From an uncultured Pseudomonadales bacterium (lineage in GTDB: Bacteria > Pseudomonadota > Gammaproteobacteria > Pseudomonadales > UBA7434): DNA of 64,000 nt. Shown piece after piece: positions 4,011 to 23,489 of the stretch. Below the pieces are notes generated by a model. That model saw only the letters and a program-made list of their open reading frames with translations, had not been told where the DNA came from and did no database searches. Position numbers and translations under genes: made by a program. Within the stretch, counting starts at the first letter, position 1, and each line of letters begins with the position of its first letter. The stretch spans positions 33,862 through 97,861 of the forward strand of contig CAZDEW010000002.1 of assembly GCA_964504585.1 (NCBI GenBank), in the 5' to 3' direction.

Positions 4011-5111
4011 ATGTCAGAATCTGTAGTGCTCTTTGAAGAACTGCCGGCCAACAATGGCTCGAAAATTGGCAAGGTGGTTCTCAATATTCCCAAAACCCTG
4101 AATTCTCTAACGCTGGAGATGGTCGAGCTCTTGCTTGAGCGTCTTGCTCAGTGGGAAGAGGATGAATCTATCGCCTGTTTGATCGTGTCCGGAAGCGGAG
4201 GCAAGGCTTTTTGCGCCGGCGGCGATGTGCAAGCCCTGCATGCAAGTGCCATTAAAACGCCTGGTGGCCCCTGCGTAGAAGCCGAGACTTTCTTCGAGCG
4301 GGAATACCGGATGGATTATGCCTTCCATAATTATTCAAAACCGGTGATTGTATGGGGTGATGGTATTGTCATGGGCGGTGGTCTCGGCATCTTTGCCGGC
4401 GGTAGTCATCGAGTGGTCACCGAAACCAGTCGCTTTGCTATGCCTGAGGTTACGATTGCGCTGTTTCCCGATGTGGGGGGTAGCTATTTTCTTAATCGAA
4501 CCCCGGGCCAGAGCGGGCGTTTTCTTGCCCTGACCGGCGCATCGTTCAACGCTTCAGATGCTATTTATCTGGGTATAGCCGACAGCTTTGTTGCGCGGGA
4601 GTATTACGACCCAGTTGAGGCTGCGCTGGTCGATGTGGCACCTTCTAGCGACGATGACGTTGATGCTGTACTTGAGCCGTTTATCGCGAAAAGCAAACTT
4701 GAGCAGCGTGTTGGGCAAATCGACGCCAGGCAAGAACAAATTGATACCTTGTGCAAGTTCAGCAATACCCTCGATGTTGTTGAGGCGGTTCGCGGACTTG
4801 AAACGGAAGATAAGTGGCTCTCAAAAGCAAAGAGCGGATTGCTCGATGGCTCTCCTTTGGCGGCGCTGTGGATCGATGAACAGTTAAAGCGGAGCAAAGA
4901 TGCATCGCTAGCCGATGTTTTCCGTTCGGAATTGCTTTTAGCAACCAATGTCGTACGTTACCCGGAGTTTGCAGAAGGGGTACGTGCGCTATTGATCGAT
5001 AAAGATCGCGAGCCTAAGTGGCAGTTCTCTTCTGTTGAGGCGGTTGAACGAGACCTGGTGGAGAGTTTCTTTAATTCGCCCTGGGACAGCAACCCATTGG
5101 CGGATTTATAA
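4011..5111 (+). CDS. 3-hydroxyisobutyryl-CoA hydrolase-type enoyl-CoA hydratase/isomerase family protein
   Basis: 366 aa long-form crotonase (FCAGGDV, GIVMGGGLG) with the C-terminal extension typical of HIBCH. Sits between the ECH and mmsB genes. Confidence 0.8.
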   Translation: MSESVVLFEELPANNGSKIGKVVLNIPKTLNSLTLEMVELLLERLAQWEEDESIACLIVSGSGGKAFCAGGDVQALHASAIKTPGGPCVEAETFFEREYRMDYAFHNYSKPVIVWGDGIVMGGGLGIFAGGSHRVVTETSRFAMPEVTIALFPDVGGSYFLNRTPGQSGRFLALTGASFNASDAIYLGIADSFVAREYYDPVEAALVDVAPSSDDDVDAVLEPFIAKSKLEQRVGQIDARQEQIDTLCKFSNTLDVVEAVRGLETEDKWLSKAKSGLLDGSPLAALWIDEQLKRSKDASLADVFRSELLLATNVVRYPEFAEGVRALLIDKDREPKWQFSSVEAVERDLVESFFNSPWDSNPLADL

Positions 5112-14982: not shown

Positions 14983-15263
14983 GAGATAGAAGTATTGCTA
15001 TGGTGCGGACCAGTCAGCTTCGACGAGACATATCAAAGGGAGACCATGCTTTGCGAGAGCCGTGGATATGGTTTATCGCAATACTAATGCTTACTGTTTT
15101 TATAGCATGCTTATTTATGATTAAAGTGGGGCTCGAAAATCCCGATCTGTCAGCTGAGGGGAATTATCGCAAAGTCGGGCTGGCGATTGAGTCGATTTCT
15201 CTTGAAGAAAATCGAGATGGTAAGCAGGCGACATCGCTGCAACCGCAGGGAGATCGCCTATGA
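14979..15263 (+). CDS. ccoH: short FixH/CcoH-like membrane protein
   Basis: 94 aa. TM helix followed by NYRKVGLAIES, resembling the FixH N-terminus. Overlaps the ccoG stop and the ccoI start, in the ccoH slot. Confidence 0.5.
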   Translation: MRDRSIAMVRTSQLRRDISKGDHALREPWIWFIAILMLTVFIACLFMIKVGLENPDLSAEGNYRKVGLAIESISLEENRDGKQATSLQPQGDRL

Positions 15264-17857
15264 AGTCGAATATTTGCTATCACTGCGGGGAGCCTGTTTA
15301 CGGTTCTGGCGTTTTTTCAACCATAAAGGCTGTTACGGGTTTTCAGAGTAACCCCGAACTGAATGAGCAGAAAAACAATGGCGCGGGTAATCGAGAACCT
15401 GTTTTTTGCTGCTCGGGTTGCAAGGCAGTGTACGAGCAGATTAATACGACCGGGTGTGGTGACTACTACCGCTATCGAACGCAAGCGGCGATTAAAGTTG
15501 AGGACTACCAGGGCAGTCGGCTCAATAAGGAGGTAATGGATTTTTCCTGGGCCGATGATTTACTCGATGAGCTGGACTTCGTGAAATCTGAGCCTATGCA
15601 AGATGGGGGCCTTCAACACAACGCGACCTTATTGCTCGAGGGTCTTCGTTGTAGTGCCTGCGCCTGGCTTGTTGAGCGATCACTTCTACGCGTTGATGGC
15701 GTAACTGCAGCACGCGTCGATCTTGTCAATCAAAAGTTAACCGTTTACTGGGATCAGTTGACCGTTAAACTTTCGACCTTGATGTCGACCTTAATGTCCC
15801 TCGGCTACTCATCAAAAGGCTGGAGTCAGAATGCGATCTGGGACAAGCATCGCCGGGATGCGTCCAGGATAATGCGTTATCTCGGTGTGTCTGGCATCAT
15901 CATGATGCAGGTTGGAATGATATCGATAGGACTCTACGCAGGAGAGCTATCTAGCAGTATGACGGCTACAAGTCTGTCGGTGCTACGGTTGGCTTGCTTT
16001 TTACTGACCGCTGTTTCGCTCATATACTGCGGTGCGCCGTTCTATCGAAGTGCTTTCAATGGTTTAAAAAAGGGCGTCATTAACATGGACGTACCGATCG
16101 TTCTCGCACTGACAATAGCGGGTGGGTATAGCCTGTATTCCACAGCTTTACACCAGGAGCACGTTTACTTCGACACAATCACAATGTTTCTCTTTTTTCT
16201 GTGGTTGAGTCGTTTTTTCGAGTATCAGTCTCGCGGACGTTTTCAACACGGGGGGTCCCAGTCTTTACCAGAGCTTGTCACCAGAAAGGTTTCAACTGAG
16301 GACGATGCATGCATCGAGACAATTGCATTACGTGATCTTGCGCCGGGTGATCATCTGCTTTGTAAGCGTGGAGATACCTTGGCCGCCGATGGAATCGTGA
16401 AGGATTCGTTTGTAGATGTGGATACTTCTGCCTTCACTGGTGAAAGTGAGGCTGTAAGGATACGTTCAGGGCAGGAGATATGCGCAGGCTCTATAAACCT
16501 GGGAGACTCGTTTTGGGTCACAGTAACCAGTGATTTTGGCAAAACCAGCTACGATAAGTTGCGTGAGTTGGCCCAGAAAGCTCACTTCGAGAAGCCTGAT
16601 TATCAAAAACTGATTGATCGAATAAGCCCTTACTTTACTCTGGTGGTTTTGTTTGTAGCAGCTTTGGTGGCTGCATACTGGTCAGCCAGAGAAAGCGGCC
16701 GCACTCTGGATATTGTAATTGCGGTACTTATTGTCAGTTGCCCTTGCGCCCTGTCTCTAGCGACACCGCTCGCGGTGACCGTGGCAAACTCCGTCTCATC
16801 CCGACTCGGTCTTGTGCCATTACGCGCCGATATCTGGTCAAGACTCAATAATATCAATGACGTGATTTTCGATAAAACGGGAACGCTGACGGACCCGGTA
16901 GAGCTTGAGACAACAATCTTGGCCGATGGCGAGTCGAAGCATAGTCCGCTGCGTGTTGCTGCGAGTCTCGAAGTGCTCTCTTCGCATCCCCTCGCGAGAA
17001 TTTTTCTGGAAAGTAACACAGAACCTCTAGACGACGTTGCAGATTTCAGGGTCGTCGACGGATTCGGTATTGAGGGAGTGGTATCAGGACTGCGATGTCG
17101 CCTTGGTTTTCCGGAATGGGCCCTCGCGCTGGAGAGGAACTCGGTCAGCCTTCGCGCGCTGAGCACTGAGTATGATGCATTACTCGTTAGCGCCGATGGG
17201 TTGGTTGCTGGTTTTCGCGTGAGAGAGTCCATCAGGCCAGAGGCCCCCGCGGTAATTTCATCTCTTAAATCTGCAGGGATAGCAGTTCACATATTTAGCG
17301 GCGATTCCCGAGTAAAGGTTGCACAAGTTGCCGCGTCCCTTGGAGTCGATTCTTTTGAGGGAGGTCTCACGCCAGAAGGTAAGCTAAAGGGACTTAAGGC
17401 CCTTCAGCAGTTCGGGGCCATAAAACGAAGGGTGCTGGCGATTGGTGACGGGGTTAACGACGCGCCGCTGCTAGCGGCTGCTGATGCGTCAGTTGCAGTA
17501 GCCAATGCCAGCGCGATTACCTCAGCTAAAGCAGACCTTCTCCAGTGCAACGAGAGCCTGCTCGCTATCGTGCAGGCTTTGCAGCTCGCAAAGGCGACTC
17601 GCGACACAACTATTGTAAATTGCCTTTGGGCGCTTGCGTACAACATTGCAGCAATATCAATGGCGGCCTTTGGCTTGATACCTCCCTATCTGGCTGCGAT
17701 TGGTATGACTCTGAGTTCACTCATCGTCTTACTTAATTCAAAACGCATATGGAGGTTTCAGGAATCCTCTAGTGGCTATTCCGAGACAGACGCCACCAAA
17801 GAAGCCGGAGCGAATACTCATCGAGAGGAATACTCAACAATAGGAGTTTACCTATGA
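15260..17857 (+). CDS. ccoI: heavy-metal (Cu) translocating P1B-type ATPase CcoI/FixI
   Basis: 865 aa. CPC motif (SCPCAL), DKTGT phosphorylation site, GDGVNDAP hinge. N-terminal Cys-rich CYHCGEP...CCSGC. Confidence 0.9.
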   Translation: MKSNICYHCGEPVYGSGVFSTIKAVTGFQSNPELNEQKNNGAGNREPVFCCSGCKAVYEQINTTGCGDYYRYRTQAAIKVEDYQGSRLNKEVMDFSWADDLLDELDFVKSEPMQDGGLQHNATLLLEGLRCSACAWLVERSLLRVDGVTAARVDLVNQKLTVYWDQLTVKLSTLMSTLMSLGYSSKGWSQNAIWDKHRRDASRIMRYLGVSGIIMMQVGMISIGLYAGELSSSMTATSLSVLRLACFLLTAVSLIYCGAPFYRSAFNGLKKGVINMDVPIVLALTIAGGYSLYSTALHQEHVYFDTITMFLFFLWLSRFFEYQSRGRFQHGGSQSLPELVTRKVSTEDDACIETIALRDLAPGDHLLCKRGDTLAADGIVKDSFVDVDTSAFTGESEAVRIRSGQEICAGSINLGDSFWVTVTSDFGKTSYDKLRELAQKAHFEKPDYQKLIDRISPYFTLVVLFVAALVAAYWSARESGRTLDIVIAVLIVSCPCALSLATPLAVTVANSVSSRLGLVPLRADIWSRLNNINDVIFDKTGTLTDPVELETTILADGESKHSPLRVAASLEVLSSHPLARIFLESNTEPLDDVADFRVVDGFGIEGVVSGLRCRLGFPEWALALERNSVSLRALSTEYDALLVSADGLVAGFRVRESIRPEAPAVISSLKSAGIAVHIFSGDSRVKVAQVAASLGVDSFEGGLTPEGKLKGLKALQQFGAIKRRVLAIGDGVNDAPLLAAADASVAVANASAITSAKADLLQCNESLLAIVQALQLAKATRDTTIVNCLWALAYNIAAISMAAFGLIPPYLAAIGMTLSSLIVLLNSKRIWRFQESSSGYSETDATKEAGANTHREEYSTIGVYL

Positions 17858-18060
17858 CAAGTCTCTTAATTCTTGTTCCAATTGCGATGTTACTGGTTGG
17901 GCTTGCTATCGCACTTTACATTTGGGCGATCAACGATGGTCAGTATCTTGATCTTGACAGGGAATCTAGTCAGATTTTGTTTGACAAACACGACTCGAAA
18001 ATCAGTAAATCTCCTGGCAATGGTCGGGTTCGCGAAGCGGACGGACGCATTACGAAATAA
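17854..18060 (+). CDS. ccoS: cbb3 oxidase maturation protein CcoS/FixS
   Basis: 68 aa. Single TM followed by WAINDGQYLDLD, typical of CcoS. Overlaps the ccoI stop. Confidence 0.85.
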   Translation: MTSLLILVPIAMLLVGLAIALYIWAINDGQYLDLDRESSQILFDKHDSKISKSPGNGRVREADGRITK

Positions 18061-18071
18061 GGACTGTTGCC

Positions 18072-18920
18072 ATGATCGATCTTGGATCTCTAGAAACGCC
18101 TTCGCCACTACTGACGGCGCTATTGATTGGCTTGGGTAGCAGTGCGCATTGTCTGGCGATGTGTGGTGGTGTCCACGCGGTGATAGGTGATCATTCACAA
18201 AATTCGTCGATGCTGATTGCAAGCGATTCTGTACATGACAAAGGTTCCGCACTCTCAGTTCCCAATGCCGGCATATCACAACTTGCATCAGAACTTGACG
18301 CTCGACTGCGACCGACTGTATTTCTATTAGTTTTTAGCGTTGGAAGGTTACTAAGTTATAGTCTCGCAGGCCTAGCTTTCGGGGCGCTGGCTTTTTCTCT
18401 GACTACTCAAAGCGCATTGTGGTTTAGCGGGGCTCGAATTCTCTCCGGGGTGCTGCTGTTTGCTATTGGTTTGCAGATGCTTGGTTGGCGTGGAAGATTT
18501 GGCGCTGAGGTGCTTGGAGAGAAAATCTGGCGCGTCATTAAAAACGGCATTGGCCTGCAATTTCCGCTAAAAACCCTGGGACAATCGTTCACCTTCGGTT
18601 TTGCCTGGGGCTGGATACCCTGCGGCGTGGTCTATTCCGTACTTGCCTGGGCTATTTTACAGACTGACCCGTTTAGCAGTGCTATGACAATGCTTTTTTT
18701 TGGCTTGGGTACGCTTCCAGCTATGCTGGGCTCAGGCCTGCTATTCCATAATGTGTCAAAAAAAGTGAATCAGGACAAGGCTCGCATTATTGCGTCGTTC
18801 ACGGTGATCGTATTCAGTATCTGGACGATTTTTTCAGCATATGGAGCCTTTATTAGCCACGCTGATGAAAACGACGATCGCGACGCTTTGCAACATAGCT
18901 CGGTGCATGTTTGTCACTAG
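18072..18920 (+). CDS. TauE/SafE-like (DsbD_2-type) membrane protein
   Basis: 282 aa, polytopic. SSAHCLAMCGG motif. Occupies the position downstream of ccoS seen in Pseudomonas-like genomes. Confidence 0.6.
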   Translation: MIDLGSLETPSPLLTALLIGLGSSAHCLAMCGGVHAVIGDHSQNSSMLIASDSVHDKGSALSVPNAGISQLASELDARLRPTVFLLVFSVGRLLSYSLAGLAFGALAFSLTTQSALWFSGARILSGVLLFAIGLQMLGWRGRFGAEVLGEKIWRVIKNGIGLQFPLKTLGQSFTFGFAWGWIPCGVVYSVLAWAILQTDPFSSAMTMLFFGLGTLPAMLGSGLLFHNVSKKVNQDKARIIASFTVIVFSIWTIFSAYGAFISHADENDDRDALQHSSVHVCH

Positions 18921-18977
18921 CGATGTGCCATCGTTTAAACGGACCATAATACGGTAGTTAGCCTAAACCAATCTTGC

Positions 18978-18991
18978 TTGATGTATATCAA
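18978..18991. promoter_or_regulatory. FNR/Anr-type binding site (perfect TTGAT-N4-ATCAA)
   Basis: TTGATGTATATCAA read at 18978-18991, about 63 nt upstream of the ompW ATG (19054). Confidence 0.6.
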
Positions 18992-19053
18992 GGCCGCTCT
19001 GGAATGGAAGGATACTATAAGTAATGACAGTACCTTCAACGCAGGAGCAGCTA

Positions 19054-19701
19054 ATGAAATATCGTGAAATAATTGAAAAATCGGTGAGCGCATCTATTTC
19101 TCTTGTATTTTTTTTGGTGGCAGCAACATTTCTTAATGTTGCGATCGCTGAAGAGAAAGGCTTAATTGTCAGAGCGGGGTATGCCGCTGTCGACCCGAAC
19201 TCTAACAGCGAGACAGTCCCCGGTGCCGGTGGTGAAGTGGCGGCCGATTCTGGAAATGCGCTTGGACTGACGGTCACCTATATGCTCGAGGAGAATTGGG
19301 GAGTGGGGCTGTTGGCAGCATCACCTTTCAAGCACGATATTGACCACTCTGTTCTTGGGGAAGTTGCCTCTACCAAGCATCTGCCCCCGACGATTACCCT
19401 GCAATACCATTTTAATACGCGGGATAGCGGAAAACCTTATGTTGGCATTGGGATGAACTATACGAAGTTCTTCGAGGAGGAGACATCTCGCCCGCTAGAA
19501 GGTGTTGATCTGGAACTTGACGAATCTTTCGGCCTTGCTATGGAGGCTGGAGTTGATTGGTTTATTGATGAATACTGGGGGGCGTCGGTACAGATTTGGT
19601 GGCTTGATATTGATACCGATGCGTCGCTGGATGGTGGTCAGGAGTTTGAAGTGCGAATAGATCCATTGGTGTACATGTTTGGCCTAAGTTACAGGCTCTA
19701 G
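19054..19701 (+). CDS. ompW: outer membrane protein OmpW
   Basis: ORF 19024-19701. Preferred ATG 19054, preceded by AGGAG. OmpW-like strands (GLLAASPFKHDI, KPYVGIGMNYTKFF), C-terminal ...GLSYRL. Confidence 0.85.
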   Translation: MKYREIIEKSVSASISLVFFLVAATFLNVAIAEEKGLIVRAGYAAVDPNSNSETVPGAGGEVAADSGNALGLTVTYMLEENWGVGLLAASPFKHDIDHSVLGEVASTKHLPPTITLQYHFNTRDSGKPYVGIGMNYTKFFEEETSRPLEGVDLELDESFGLAMEAGVDWFIDEYWGASVQIWWLDIDTDASLDGGQEFEVRIDPLVYMFGLSYRL

Positions 19702-19738
19702 TTTTCGCTGTGATTTTAGATATAGTTTCGAGTTTTTC

Positions 19739-21121
19739 ATGAACGATTTAACGGATGTTGGATGGGACCAGGCGCTGCTTCAGCGATATGACCGTCGTGG
19801 GCCGAGATATACGTCTTATCCAGGTGCACATATGTTTGAGCCTCTGTCGGTCGAAACACACCTTGATGCCCATTTGAGTTCGAGGGCGCGCTCACCGGAG
19901 ACGCTCGGTCTCTATGTTCATGTGCCTTTCTGTAATGATATCTGTTATTACTGTGCTTGTAACAAACTGGTCACTCGCGATCGCGCAAAGGGAAGACAGT
20001 ATCTAGATTATCTCAGCAAAGAAATCGATTTATATGGCAGGCACTGGGGTGGCCGCGAGATTACGTCTTTACATCTCGGTGGCGGAACGCCAAACTGGCT
20101 TGACGACGGAGAGCTTACGGAGTTGGTTTATCTGCTTTCGTCGACTTTTAATCTGAGCGACAGGGATAGCAGAGAATTCAGCGTCGAGATAGATCCTCGC
20201 GGTATCGACCTCGATACGATTCGCCTGCTGAGCGGTCTAGGATTTAATCGTCTAAGTCTCGGTGTTCAGGATTTTGATGAGAGAGTCCAGCGGGCAGTTA
20301 ATCGAGTGCAAAGCGAGGCTCTGGTTCGCTCGGTGATTGAATTTGCGCGATTAAGTGGTTTTCGTTCGATCAACTACGACTTGATCTATGGCTTGCCATT
20401 TCAAACCAGTCTATCTTTGTCGAATACGGTTGACGTAGTGCTGGAACACAAGCCAGACAGGGTTGCGCTCTACAACTATGCGCATTTGCCCGATCGCTTC
20501 GTTAGCCAGCGGGCGATAGACCGGTTGAATCTACCGGCTGCAAGTGAGAAATTGAACATGCTCTGCAGTGCAGCAGGCAGGCTGCAGGAGAATGGCTATC
20601 GTTACATTGGTATGGATCATTTCGCGAGAGAAGGTAGCGATATGGAAATAGCCGAGCGGGAAGGTAAGTTGTCCCGCGGTTTTCAAGGCTATTCTATCCA
20701 ATTTGCGCCTGAGACAATCGGGCTTGGTGTGTCTGCAATTAGCAGCCTCGATGATGTCTATTATCAAAACGAGAAATCGCTCGAAGCATACTATGAGAGA
20801 CTTGATCACGGAGAGTTGCCGGCCGTTAAAGGAGTCGTGCTTTCATTTGACGACCAGGTCAGACGGAGAGTTATCCAATCGCTAATTTGCGAACTGCGCG
20901 CTGATAAACAAGAGATAGCTGCCGAGTTTAATATAGACTTTGACAGCTATTTCAAGCAGCTCAAGGGCAAATTTGAGTCTGCCGAAAAAGATGGCCTGCT
21001 TGCGGATTCCACATCGGCAATTATCGTTACGGAGCGAGGAAGACTACTGCTTCGAAACATCTGTATGATCTTTGACAGCACACTGCAATATACCGAGACC
21101 CGCTTTTCCCAGACAGTCTGA
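19739..21121 (+). CDS. hemN: oxygen-independent coproporphyrinogen III oxidase (radical SAM)
   Basis: 460 aa. Motifs YVHVPFCNDICYYCACN (CxxxCxxC) and GGGTPN. Confidence 0.95.
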   Translation: MNDLTDVGWDQALLQRYDRRGPRYTSYPGAHMFEPLSVETHLDAHLSSRARSPETLGLYVHVPFCNDICYYCACNKLVTRDRAKGRQYLDYLSKEIDLYGRHWGGREITSLHLGGGTPNWLDDGELTELVYLLSSTFNLSDRDSREFSVEIDPRGIDLDTIRLLSGLGFNRLSLGVQDFDERVQRAVNRVQSEALVRSVIEFARLSGFRSINYDLIYGLPFQTSLSLSNTVDVVLEHKPDRVALYNYAHLPDRFVSQRAIDRLNLPAASEKLNMLCSAAGRLQENGYRYIGMDHFAREGSDMEIAEREGKLSRGFQGYSIQFAPETIGLGVSAISSLDDVYYQNEKSLEAYYERLDHGELPAVKGVVLSFDDQVRRRVIQSLICELRADKQEIAAEFNIDFDSYFKQLKGKFESAEKDGLLADSTSAIIVTERGRLLLRNICMIFDSTLQYTETRFSQTV

Positions 21122-21220
21122 ACATTACTCACTAAGCTCTTCTCGCCTATCAAATTGCTGTGTTTCGGTACCTTTTGCTGACCGTTTGGGCTTTTAAACG
21201 TTTATACTTAATATCCTTTT

Positions 21221-21967
21221 GTGGATATTCGGAGCGTGCCGATGGGGGCTGATGTAAATAGCTGTGCTCATGATCGCAATGTTAACTGCGGTAATTGCCG
21301 TCTGAATTCAATTTGTATGCCTTTGGCACTGTCTGGTGACGAGGTGGTAAAACTGGACGAAGTCGTTACACGGGGCAGGCCGATACGCAAGGGTAGCCAT
21401 CTGTTTGAGCAGGACAGTGATTTTCGTTCGATTTTCGCGGTGCGCTCAGGCGCTCTGAAGACCTATCGTGTCACCGAAAGCGGTGAAGAGCATGTCATGG
21501 GTTTTTACTTGCCTGGCGAGATCGTCGGTATTGACGGGGTGAGTCGTCACCGTTATGCAACGTCGGCCATAGCACTCGATACGTCTGCCGTCTGCGAGAT
21601 ACCCTTTGAGCGTATCGAGCAGCTGAGCCTTCAGCTTCCCTCCTTACAGCGATATATGTTCCAGTTGATGAGCCGGGAGATTACCGATGACCAAAAGATG
21701 CTCTCGATTGTTAGCCGCAGTACGGCAGAAGAGCGGGTTGCATCGGTGTTGCTAAGCCTTTCGGCGAGGCAGGCCAGACGGCAGCTCAGTGCTACTGAAT
21801 TTCTATTGCCAATGTCACGCCAGGATCTGGCCAATTTTCTTGGTTTAACCGTCGAAACCATAAGTCGTGTGCTGCGTCGATTTAAAGACGACCAAATACT
21901 TGCCGTGGAAGGTAAATCGATTAGCATTCTTGATGCCGAGGGTCTGCGATCTGCTGCGAGTGTCTAG
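21221..21967 (+). CDS. fnr: FNR/Anr-type Crp-family transcriptional regulator
   Basis: 248 aa (alternative ATG 21242). N-terminal Cys cluster CAHDRNVNCGNCRLNSIC, cNMP-binding fold, C-terminal HTH ETISRVL. Confidence 0.9.
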   Translation: MDIRSVPMGADVNSCAHDRNVNCGNCRLNSICMPLALSGDEVVKLDEVVTRGRPIRKGSHLFEQDSDFRSIFAVRSGALKTYRVTESGEEHVMGFYLPGEIVGIDGVSRHRYATSAIALDTSAVCEIPFERIEQLSLQLPSLQRYMFQLMSREITDDQKMLSIVSRSTAEERVASVLLSLSARQARRQLSATEFLLPMSRQDLANFLGLTVETISRVLRRFKDDQILAVEGKSISILDAEGLRSAASV

Positions 21968-22047
21968 TGTCATCCATTGGATGGACGTATCGCGACGATA
22001 GATGAGCTTTAGCGGCTAAAGAAGCGGTTGCTGATTGAAAATCCTTG

Positions 22048-22539
22048 CAATCCCAAAATAGTACCGCTGATCTAAGGCATCAAAAGCTCTAGAATCTGGG
22101 TTCTCCGCCCGTGGCACAACTGGGTTCAAAGCGTCTCGGGGCGAGCACTGCTCGACCAGCTTTGAACGCCAAGGCAGTGGATGCCGCAGGCGGGGTGAGT
22201 TAAGAAGGCAGTGTCGCGCCAGGAAGGCTGCTTCGGCCTACCTTAGTGACTCGTACAATCCCAAAATAGTACTGCTGAACTGTGGCGGCAAAAGCTCTAG
22301 AATCTTGGTTCTCCGCCCGTGGCACAACTGGGTTCAAAGCGTCTCGGGGCGAGCACTGCTCGACCAGCTTTGAACGCCAAGGCAGTGGATGCCGCAGGCG
22401 GGGTGAGTTAAGAAGGCAGTGTCGCGCCAGGAAGGCTGCTTCGGCCTACCTTAGTGACTCGTACAATCCCAAAATAGTACTGCTGAACTGTGGCGGCAAA
22501 AGCTCTAGAATCTTGGTTCTCCGCCCGTGGCACAACTGG
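22048..22539 (+). repeat. 208-bp tandem repeat (about 2.4 copies), each copy carrying the tRNA-Arg promoter and the first 19 nt of the tRNA
   Basis: AATCCCAAAATAGTA starts at 22049, 22257 and 22465, an exact 208-nt period. Copies 1 and 2 are identical from 22105/22313 through the 133-nt non-tRNA segment GTTCAAAGCG...GACTCGTAC. Copy 3 runs into the intact tRNA. Confidence 0.9.
22483..22511 (+). promoter_or_regulatory. putative sigma70 promoter of tRNA-Arg (CTGAAC-17-TAGAAT); equivalent copies at 22067-22095 and 22275-22303
   Basis: TAGAAT at 22506-22511 lies 9 nt upstream of the tRNA 5' end. The same hexamer occurs at 22090-22095 and 22298-22303. The -35 element is weak. Confidence 0.35.
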
Positions 22540-22597
22540 ATAGCGCGTCCCCCTCCTAAGGGGAAGGTTGCAGGTTCGATTCCTGCCGGGCGGGCCA
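22521..22597 (+). tRNA. tRNA-Arg (anticodon CCU), CCA-encoded
   Basis: Manual cloverleaf. Acceptor CCGCCCG/CGGGCGG has 7 of 7 pairs. Anticodon stem TCCCC/GGGGA with loop CU-CCU-AA. T arm GCAGG-TTCGATT-CCTGC. Discriminator G followed by CCA. The D stem has one A-C mismatch. Confidence 0.9.
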
Positions 22598-22717
22598 CTT
22601 TGTGCGCCCTTCCTGTGCAAGGAATGCCATCCCCAAATTAAAGATTTGGGTCGTTAATCAAACGCAAAGCGATGCTTTGCTAAAGACGTTTGATTAACCC
22701 AGCCGGGCGGGCCACTT
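22585..22717 (+). repeat. 16-nt direct repeat of the tRNA 3' end (GCCGGGCGGGCCACTT) flanking a 101-bp hairpin-rich spacer
   Basis: Identical 16-mers at 22585-22600 and 22702-22717. The spacer holds CCCAAAT/ATTTGGG and a 12-bp stem GTTAATCAAACG/CGTTTGATTAAC with nested CAAAGC/GCTTTG. Confidence 0.7.
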
Positions 22718-22754
22718 CTTGCTATGCAAATTTACAGTCGCTACCTGCAAAAAA

Positions 22755-23489
22755 TTAAGTCTTCTGCCCAATCGGCCTTAGCAAAATCTCATTCACATCG
22801 ACTTCGTCAGGCTGTTCCATCGCCCAGACAATGCTGTCCGCAATGCTCTCCGCGCTGATCGCATCTTCGTAGGATTTGTTGATCGCAGCGCTTAACTTGG
22901 GGTCAGAGATTGTTGTGGTGAGCTCTGTTGCTACGCTGCCAGGTGAAATCAGGGTCGTGCGAATCTGCTGCTCTTCCTGCCTTAACGCCTCTGATAGCGC
23001 TCTGACTGCGTGCTTGGTGGCACAGTAGACGCCGCCGGCTGGGAACACAGTGTGCCCTGCGATAGACGCTATATTGATAACGTGCCCTGATCCTTGAGCC
23101 TTCATCTGTCCAATAACAGCCGCTATCCCGTACAGTACGCCTTTGATGTTTACATCAACCATCTGATCCCACTCTTCGACCTTTGTCTGGGACAAGAATG
23201 AAAGCGGCATTAAACCGGCGTTGTTGATAATCGCGTCAATTCGGCCAAATTCAGTCATTGCGAGGCTGGCAAGTGCTTCGACATCTTCTCGTTGGGTGAC
23301 ATCAGTTTTACGAACCAGGACCTCACTGCCTTGTTCATTTAAGGCCGCTGCTAGTGCTTCTAGTCGGTCCACGCGGCGTGCGCCAATCACCAGGCGAGCT
23401 CCTTTCGCCGATAGCTTTTTTACGGCCTCTTCGCCAATTCCGCTGCTTGCGCCTGTTATGATAACCACGCGACCTTTAATGACGCTCAT
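22755..23489 (-). CDS. SDR-family oxidoreductase
   Basis: 244 aa. Motifs TGASSGIG, NNAG, YCATK. Confidence 0.85.
   Translation of the reverse strand: MSVIKGRVVIITGASSGIGEEAVKKLSAKGARLVIGARRVDRLEALAAALNEQGSEVLVRKTDVTQREDVEALASLAMTEFGRIDAIINNAGLMPLSFLSQTKVEEWDQMVDVNIKGVLYGIAAVIGQMKAQGSGHVINIASIAGHTVFPAGGVYCATKHAVRALSEALRQEEQQIRTTLISPGSVATELTTTISDPKLSAAINKSYEDAISAESIADSIVWAMEQPDEVDVNEILLRPIGQKT

Follow-up and report, generated by a model that had tools for sequence, protein, structure and literature searches.

Repeats linked to tRNA genes have reportedly been known since 1978, and most of them are said to be without an explained origin or function. E. coli holds 22 of these tRNA-linked repeat (TLR) units at ten loci, with one to five units per locus, and the last 18–19 bp of each of them match exactly the 3′ end of the gene located just upstream (Egan & Landy 1978 and Rudd 1999, as summarised in PMC8144298). 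For most TLRs no function is known, although processing of three that are linked to rRNA yields RNAs that bind Hfq/CsrA (PMC8144298). The type example, the tyrT-tyrV array of E. coli K-12, was checked here; it has a period of 178 nt and 3.1 copies, overlaps the last 19 nt of tyrV, and has rttR and tpr annotated inside it.

The second group of closely related systems are the islands that integrate into tRNA genes (tDNA) and displace a fragment of them. The Islander collection holds 159 islands with a 5′ tDNA fragment out of 3919, versus 3760 with a 3′ fragment, and quotes an attP size of ~250 bp. In E. coli, the tRNA-Arg(CCU) gene argW has been documented as an attB. Only a small and little-studied minority of islands displace the 5′ end, and in their case the incoming copy that restores the gene must also bring the promoter. 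A last precedent is provided by the stable-RNA operons, where more than one sigma-70 promoter reads into one stable RNA gene, as P1 and P2 do in rrn.

The array described here lies upstream of a tRNA-Arg(CCU) gene in the window, i.e., the whole stretch of DNA analysed (64 kb). Although it resembles a TLR or a tDNA scar, it falls outside both the TLR family and the island class as they are defined, and constitutes a 5′-side, promoter-bearing form of tRNA-linked repeat or tDNA-fragment scar that is new here. The preferred reading, to which we give a probability of roughly 0.45, is that of an inherited scar of a recombination event in the D-loop, whose copy number has been shifting by unequal recombination, and which leaves tandem promoters ahead of the tRNA. 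The feature itself is real and reproducible, and its architecture is conserved; its function is putative.

Anatomy of the array and its surroundings

Tandem Repeats Finder reports one tandem array at positions 22048–22539 (period 208, 2.4 copies, 97% matches, score 935), with the order A1-B-A2-B-A3 on the + strand (Table 1). In each unit, the promoter of tRNA-Arg(CCU) and the initial 19 nt of the gene are present as a displaced copy, and a non-tRNA body comes after them; A accounts for 76 nt (a promoter-like region of 57 nt plus tRNA nucleotides 1–19) and B for 132 nt, instead of the 133 nt initially proposed. The original prediction of a 208-nt tandem repeat with three copies agrees with this result, but the repeat is exact between units 2 and 3 only, unit 1 being 97% identical to them. 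A2 and A3 match exactly and the two B copies are identical, while A1 and A2 show exactly seven differences, at 22065, 22071, 22074, 22075, 22079, 22080, and 22098, so that all seven substitutions placed by the original prediction between 22065 and 22098 were found again. A clustering of these differences was considered and rejected, as it loses significance when the tRNA part, which is constrained, is excluded (p ~0.15, an estimate). As the prediction also held, TAGAAT (at 22090, 22298, and 22506) precedes by 9 nt the start of the tRNA-derived part CCGCCCGTGGCACAACTGG in every copy (at 22105, 22313, and 22521), and only the last copy continues as a tRNA. A relaxed ARAGORN run allowing for introns yielded a single spurious low-threshold call.

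Table 1. Features of the tRNA-Arg(CCU) locus, in window coordinates.
Feature	Position	Strand	Length	Remarks
Promoter call TTGAAA-16-AATAGT	22035–22062	+		Sole promoter call of the consensus scan
A1, outermost copy	22048–22123	+	76 nt	Promoter module (57 nt) and tRNA nt 1–19
A1, −35-like CTGATC	22067–22072	+
A1, −10 TAGAAT	22090–22095	+
A1, tRNA 5′ fragment	22105–22123	+
B, first copy	22124–22255	+	132 nt	Non-tRNA body
A2	22256–22331	+	76 nt	Second promoter module and tRNA nt 1–19; followed by B, not by tRNA
A2, −35-like CTGAAC	22275–22280	+
A2, TAGAAT	22298–22303	+
B, second copy	22332–22463	+	132 nt	Identical to the first
A3	22464–22539	+	76 nt	Only A that runs on into the intact tRNA
A3, promoter part	22464–22520	+		Nearest to the intact tRNA; TAGAAT at 22506–22511
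Intact tRNA-Arg, anticodon CCT	22521–22597	+		ARAGORN; Rfam tRNA, 59.5 bits; first 19 nt are the end of A3
3′-side tRNA-linked unit	22598–22722	+		Ends in the tRNA 3′-end copy, 22699–22722

The body B holds the nested inverted repeats originally described (GTTCAAAGC at 22124–22132 and GCTTTGAAC at 22159–22167, with CGAGCACTGCTCG at 22142–22154 between them), as well as the element AAGGCAGTG, which occurs twice, at 22171 and 22205. Hairpins are found at 22124–22167 and 22222–22242 in the first copy, and an exact 9-mer repeat like that of B appears in 91 of 3000 shuffles of its sequence (~3%). In the minimum-free-energy fold, the 5′ strand of the tRNA can pair with GGCGG of B. The description of B as a structured segment is, however, not sustained, because its shuffle z-scores reach just −1.5 to −1.8 on either strand, and it shares neither sequence nor fold with the corresponding body of a relative (see below). 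The Rfam comparison proposed as a check gave no match for B at E ≤ 10: a scan with Rfam 15 of positions 21900–22900, on both strands, returned only the tRNA and chance matches. The candidates of a known RNA family, a small RNA, a ribozyme, or a group I intron were rejected on these grounds, and the attC-like reading of the B hairpin was discarded by inspection because its GTT and AAC ends stand in the wrong order.

Other identities considered for B fared no better. It is not a dispersed repeat or MITE, as no further copies of it were found in the 64-kb window, where it has this sole locus. Neither B nor A gave meaningful matches in the phage, plasmid, and viral-contig collections, and the only two matches of B in the JGI metagenomes correspond to a chance 23-mer within a histidine-kinase gene. 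Strict and permissive local alignments of B with the remainder of the tRNA and with its downstream flank stayed at the level of shuffled sequences (p 0.4–0.7), which argues against a decayed tRNA remainder or a copy of the flank. A resemblance seen by eye between the start of B and the T-loop plus acceptor strand (14 of 24 positions) was equalled by 96 of 300 shuffles.

A second repeat, overlooked in the original prediction, is located on the other side of the gene. The tRNA's 3′ end (22582–22605) occurs again 117 bp further on, agreeing at 21 of 24 positions, with an uninterrupted exact stretch of 16, which is the layout of a classical TLR or att scar. Strong hairpins lie between the two 3′-end copies, including a perfect 12-bp one (22653–22664/22687–22698), and the hairpin inside the stem 22653–22698 scans as the minus-strand terminator of the gene for a short-chain dehydrogenase (SDR).

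This SDR gene (22755–23489, minus strand) is convergent with the array, which on its other side has a gene for an FNR/Anr-type regulator (21242–21967), preceded by hemN. Base composition is flat over the whole window, and its sole Rfam family, in a scan of the 64 kb at the gathering threshold, is the tRNA-Arg. Among the ten ORFs of 276–413 aa scanned with Pfam, nine encode metabolic or housekeeping proteins and one has no match; no integrase or recombinase was found among them. Reference genomes cover the organism thinly: its FNR has its nearest homologues, at 57–72% identity, in Cellvibrionales- or Pseudomonadales-like MAGs, and a synteny search for the orthologous tRNA locus revealed no tRNA or array after FNR in these closest homologues.

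The promoter module, a second organism, and copy number

SDR homologues at 86% identity exist, and one relative was found to have the same architecture as the window. Thirteen Logan contigs with one 86% SDR homologue all end 29–61 nt past the stop codon, within the repeat, but the ENA scaffold L039 runs further, and in it the SDR stop is followed by ~11 nt, an A′ module, a body B′, and A′ again, up to the end of the contig. A′ consists of a promoter-like region with TAGAAT, followed by CCGCCCGTGGCACAATTGG. The length of B′ is 134–143 nt, set by where the left edge of A′ is placed, and the period is 210 nt, versus 208 nt in the window. The tRNA-derived part ends at the same nucleotide in both organisms, after TGG at tRNA position 19 (in the D-loop), and the distance from this junction to a conserved C[A/T]ATCCC block is 134 nt in the relative and 132 nt in the window. 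The orientation is opposite: the array of L039 begins just after the SDR stop and points away from it, whereas in the window the tRNA's 3′ end faces the SDR gene. No A-like sequence or array was detected at SDR relatives of 72–77% identity.

The alignment of the A modules of both organisms is gapless, with CTGAyC, 17 nt, TAGAAT, 9 nt, and the start of the tRNA in succession. The conserved blocks are AGTAC.GCTGA.C (−35-like) and CAAAAGC.CTAGAAT, separated by 17 variable nucleotides and followed by nine variable ones ahead of the tRNA start. This conservation stands against a background in which identity at the third codon positions of the SDR genes is just 40% and the intergenic spacer next to them can hardly be aligned (310 versus 245 nt, z ~2.5). 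Because the −35-like box and TAGAAT, the 17 nt between them, and the 9 nt that lead up to the tRNA are kept without gaps across both organisms, A is predicted to be a real sigma-70-type promoter module. The claim that the units carry a promoter is upheld by the same observation, made in a relative whose neutral DNA is saturated. Nevertheless, the strict consensus scan does not call the TAGAAT promoter, because its −35 box agrees with the consensus at only three of six positions in the window (four of six in the relative). The single promoter that the scan does call is present only ahead of copy 1, because its −35 box lies outside the repeat.

The comparison of both organisms also bears on the age of the copies. 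A1 is the version of the module in the array that is nearest to that of the relative, and with the latter as outgroup A2 and A3 carry three derived changes and A1 none. For this reason the displaced outer copy looks ancestral and the in-use copy looks derived, in line with the original prediction of a native flank followed by imported or duplicated units. Within each genome the copies are more alike (91% between A1 and A2, and 100% over 55 nt for the copies of L039) than between organisms (75–80%), a pattern that marks concerted evolution or a recent amplification. Consequently, either an ancestral array has been in concerted evolution, or the same site-specific process has acted afresh in each lineage. 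B and B′ are essentially unalignable (global z 0.75), with no common sequence or fold, and at the present divergence this says nothing about a common origin. A banded test revealed one on-diagonal segment (p ~0.03), a weak hint that may point to common ancestry. On the sequence comparison, a one-off accident is excluded as the origin, since the two lineages agree in break point and unit length.

The number of units was followed in contigs coding for an identical SDR or FNR protein, pulled from independent metagenome assemblies, all of them from short reads. Four of these contigs (L001, L002, L005, and L028) show a two-copy form, A1-B-A2-tRNA; L004 shows the three-copy form, like the window; and in another three (L003, L006, and L027) the contig stops within the repeat. 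Thus, the assemblies differ in having two or three copies of A and, as the data are short reads throughout and collapse is possible, the true number could be three or more. In strain L001, the functional tRNA has a substitution in the D-loop that is absent from its displaced fragment.

It might be argued that the repeat, or at least its third copy, is a short-read mis-assembly, since every source is a short-read metagenome assembly, the exact 208-nt unit exceeds the k-mers used, and the assemblies disagree, with two copies, three copies, or broken contigs. Such an origin is very improbable. A-B-A is not an artefact, given that the two-copy form is free of long k-mers that repeat and that several samples yield one identical assembly of it; it is the same in at least five independent samples and recurs in a second species. 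The three-copy form, found in two independent assemblies (L004 and the window), requires reads that link the A2-specific base 22306 to B over just 25 shared nucleotides.

Resemblance to known systems and proposed origin of the units

Like the TLRs, the array is made of short tandem units (~100–200 nt) next to a tRNA gene, with 18–19 nt of the gene end plus a non-tRNA body, and its two or three A copies lie within the range of one to five units per locus. The parallel with tyrT-tyrV is close in its dimensions (178 nt, 3.1 copies, and a 19-nt overlap there; 208 nt, 2.4 copies, and a 19-nt overlap here), and the 3′-side unit of the window has the exact TLR layout, being downstream and ending in a copy of the 3′ end of the gene. 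However, the 208-nt array is the mirror image of a TLR, as it is located upstream and carries copies of the gene's first 19 nt rather than its last. Moreover, unlike TLRs, its units carry a whole promoter, and no sequence or structure homology to the RtT/TLR family was found (Rfam 15, E ≤ 10).

With the 5′-fragment islands the array shares the order of its parts, with two fragments (22105–22123 and 22313–22331) upstream of the intact tRNA, all on the + strand; the restoration of the gene by an incoming copy that must bring the promoter; and the occurrence of tandem arrays. The numbers of Islander given above support the initial view that an arrangement at the 5′ end is non-standard. On the other hand, merely 132 nt of non-coding body separate fragment and gene, with no integrase; the unit of 208 bp is far below the 2-kb minimum of islands (range 2–200 kb); the break is in the D-loop instead of the anticodon loop, the T loop, or the T/acceptor junction; and the homology reaches 57 nt upstream of the gene. 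Of the two readings initially offered, a chimeric small RNA or an integration scar, the scar is the better fit, but the locus departs from islands in having no integrase between fragment and gene, in its size, and in its break point. The comparison with rrn P1-P2 is also partial, as the promoters here are near-identical duplicates ~208 nt apart, each followed by a truncated 5′ end of the gene.

According to the preferred reading of an inherited scar, one recombination event would have cut the gene in the D-loop after nucleotide 19, and the gene would have been rebuilt from an incoming promoter and 5′ end, leaving a miniature scar of the attL/attR type; such a rebuilding follows the logic of tDNA integration that displaces a 5′ fragment. 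The event would have taken place before the split of the window lineage and the 86% relative, or else the scar may have been made in each of them by the same site-specific process. Since then the units would have been in concerted evolution, their number going up and down through unequal homologous recombination or slippage. The step from two to three copies must then have involved a crossover inside the 25-nt identical block 22099–22123, because the middle copy is wholly of the A2 type. In favour of this reading are the exact array with an intact tRNA solely at its 3′ end; the same junction nucleotide and the near-equal body and period in L039; the classical 3′ repeat scar at the same tRNA; the + strand of the array, where no intrinsic terminator was found; and the body B, with no family match or significant fold. 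The gapless A module, the greater likeness of the copies within a genome, the occurrence of two-copy, three-copy, and broken contigs, the weak on-diagonal segment, and the precedents of argW and of the 5′-fragment islands also speak for it.

Several observations do not fit it well. There is no integrase in the stretch from fragment to gene or among the ten ORFs of 276–413 aa scanned with Pfam, and neither a full-length element nor an attP carrying B was found in the viral, phage, plasmid, and JGI metagenome collections searched. The break in the D-loop is not among the crossover sublocations listed for tDNA islands, and the inversion of the module relative to SDR between the organisms is left by the scar without explanation. 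The failure of the consensus scan to call the TAGAAT promoter also weighs against it. A functionless 208-bp direct repeat should vanish fast by deletion, and the presence of the array in two lineages with saturated synonymous sites, with body lengths within 2 nt, hints at selection or an active process. A passive scar does not explain this persistence, and two other accounts stay alive as a result: an active mini-element and a selected leader or small RNA.

In the first of them, which we regard as doubtful, the 208-bp unit would be a circularly permuted module of attP size (B, promoter, and 5′ part of the tRNA) belonging to a non-autonomous element. An integrase encoded elsewhere would insert it into the D-loop of tRNA-Arg(CCU), each insertion bringing its own promoter and 5′ end, and repeated insertions would give rise to tandem copies, which are typical for site-specific insertion. 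This fits the use of the same junction nucleotide in two organisms with unalignable bodies, and the unit of 208 or 210 nt, near the ~250-bp attP size quoted by Islander. It is also compatible with a derived gene-rebuilding copy (A2/A3) next to an ancestral-like displaced A1, with the direct 9-mer repeat of B, which could represent arm-type sites (p ~0.03), and with the additional att-like scar at the tRNA's 3′ end. However, no integrase was seen among the ten ORFs scanned in the window and no second site or free copy of B in any collection searched, a 208-bp excision circle is mechanically demanding, and common descent followed by concerted evolution accounts for the junction equally well. To our knowledge, the D-loop is used by no tDNA integrase.

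No mobile element is required if the array derives from decayed tandem tRNA genes. An ancestor with at least two tandem tRNA-Arg(CCU) genes, each with its promoter, would have lost the stretch that runs from the upstream gene's D-loop into the spacer, resulting in A1-B-A2 with B as the old inter-gene spacer, and slippage would have added a unit. Tandem tRNA genes with unequal crossing-over are common (the 178-bp × 3.1 array of tyrT-tyrV was the case checked), and this origin accounts for the constraint on both promoters. It is nevertheless quite unlikely, as B and B′ resemble neither the remaining part of the tRNA nor the flank downstream of it (p 0.4–0.7), the identity falls sharply from 100% to nothing at nucleotides 19/20, and the displaced copy is less diverged than the in-use copy.

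Predicted transcription of the array and its meaning

Returning to the inherited scar, every unit would keep a working sigma-70-type promoter and, with a promoter in each unit and no terminator in B, upstream transcripts would run on across B as far as the tRNA. RNase P would be expected to free the mature tRNA plus leaders of ~210 and ~418 nt. The discrete chimeric transcript of 150–200 nt suggested originally is not predicted, because no + strand intrinsic terminator follows B, and none was found anywhere in the array. Hence, B most likely represents a passenger leader and not an independent RNA gene, with probably no function of its own.

The second account that stays alive assigns the upstream units a function at the RNA level, so that they would be kept for a chimeric transcript starting with tRNA nucleotides 1–19, or for a small RNA released from the 5′ leader by RNase P. 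The processed RNAs that derive from tRNA- or rRNA-linked repeats of E. coli (RrA/B/F and 3′ETS-leuZ) are precedents for it. It would agree with the persistence of the architecture in two lineages despite saturated neutral divergence, with body lengths of 132 and 134 nt next to a spacer of 310 versus 245 nt, with the conserved promoters, and with the possible pairing of the tRNA 5′ strand with GGCGG in B. Yet L039 does not show this pairing again, and between the two organisms the bodies have neither sequence (global z 0.75) nor fold in common. Together with the Rfam result (no match at E ≤ 10), the fold z-scores of just −1.5 to −1.8, and a 3′ end not marked by any terminator, this makes an RNA function rather improbable.

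Somewhat less improbable, although still unlikely, is the broader proposal that the unit of 208–210 nt is a functional module not described before, in the form of either a D-loop insertion cassette or a selected 5′-side repeat that yields a leader-derived regulatory RNA. In either form, it would explain why the same break point, the same unit length, and tandem persistence are found in two neutrally saturated lineages. If true, the cassette would be a promoter-bearing, non-autonomous one that rebuilds the gene from its 5′ side, and would represent both a new tDNA sublocation and a miniature integrative element.

In practical terms, arrays of this kind break short-read assemblies, and they are at risk of being missed or mis-annotated as pseudo-tRNAs. 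A single gene here has a classical repeat on its 3′ side and, upstream, a mirror-image array in which the promoter is copied in full, and a second organism conserves the layout. Should the units be scars, they would record the break point in the D-loop and a promoter-carrying repair of the tRNA gene. If they are selected, a rare-codon tRNA would provide a simple example from nature of how a promoter is amplified, or of an RNA that derives from a leader.

A tRNA-linked unit on the 3' side of tRNA-Arg

Besides the 5' array, a second tRNA-linked unit lies on the 3' side of tRNA-Arg(CCU), where positions 22699-22722 copy the tRNA 3' end (22582-22605) with 21 of 24 matches, 16 of them in a single exact run. 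Between both copies of the tRNA 3' end stands a perfect 12-bp hairpin (22653-22664/22687-22698), whose inner hairpin is predicted by a terminator scan to be the minus-strand terminator of the short-chain dehydrogenase (SDR) gene. This layout is the same as that of the E. coli tRNA-linked repeat, and also as that of a classical att scar.

Features in and around the tRNA-Arg locus (window coordinates)
Feature	Position	Strand	Remark
FixI-like ATPase, FixS, DsbD_2, OmpW, HemN, FNR	15260-21967		conserved neighbourhood
Arginine-rich ORF, 119 aa	22282-22641	+	spans A2-B-A3 (promoter/tRNA 5' copies A, non-tRNA body B) and tRNA
Second tRNA-linked unit, 3' side	22598-22722		repeated tRNA 3' end
ORF, 413 aa	37120-38361	-	zero matches in Pfam scan (E<=1e-5)

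Sequence variation and reading frames

In one strain, represented by a contig with a two-copy array (L001, reverse complement, about 4780-4790), the functional tRNA carries a C-to-A change in the D-loop (CACAAATGG; window 22536), while the displaced 5' fragment still holds the C. The E. coli tyrT repeat has a 'protamine-like protein' (tpr) annotated inside it; the arginine-rich ORF that crosses the array here is probably GC-rich noise.

Neighbourhood of the tRNA-SDR locus

The genes upstream of the array, devoted to cbb3-oxidase maturation and anaerobic regulation, are shared with a 72% FNR relative, which lacks the tRNA array. In a 76% SDR relative, an unrelated tandem repeat of ~130 nt (TGTAGGTTGGCATTCATGCCAACAA...; L037 5736-6205) lies immediately 3' of the SDR gene.

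With the SDR gene as reference, the tRNA-Arg module has opposite orientations in the window organism (22048-22754) and the 86% SDR relative (scaffold L039, 1220-1495). The outer neighbours of the DUF547-SDR gene pair also differ, being radical-SAM/DUF3641 in the former and an RND efflux pump in the latter. The tRNA-Arg/SDR locus appears to be a rearrangement point.
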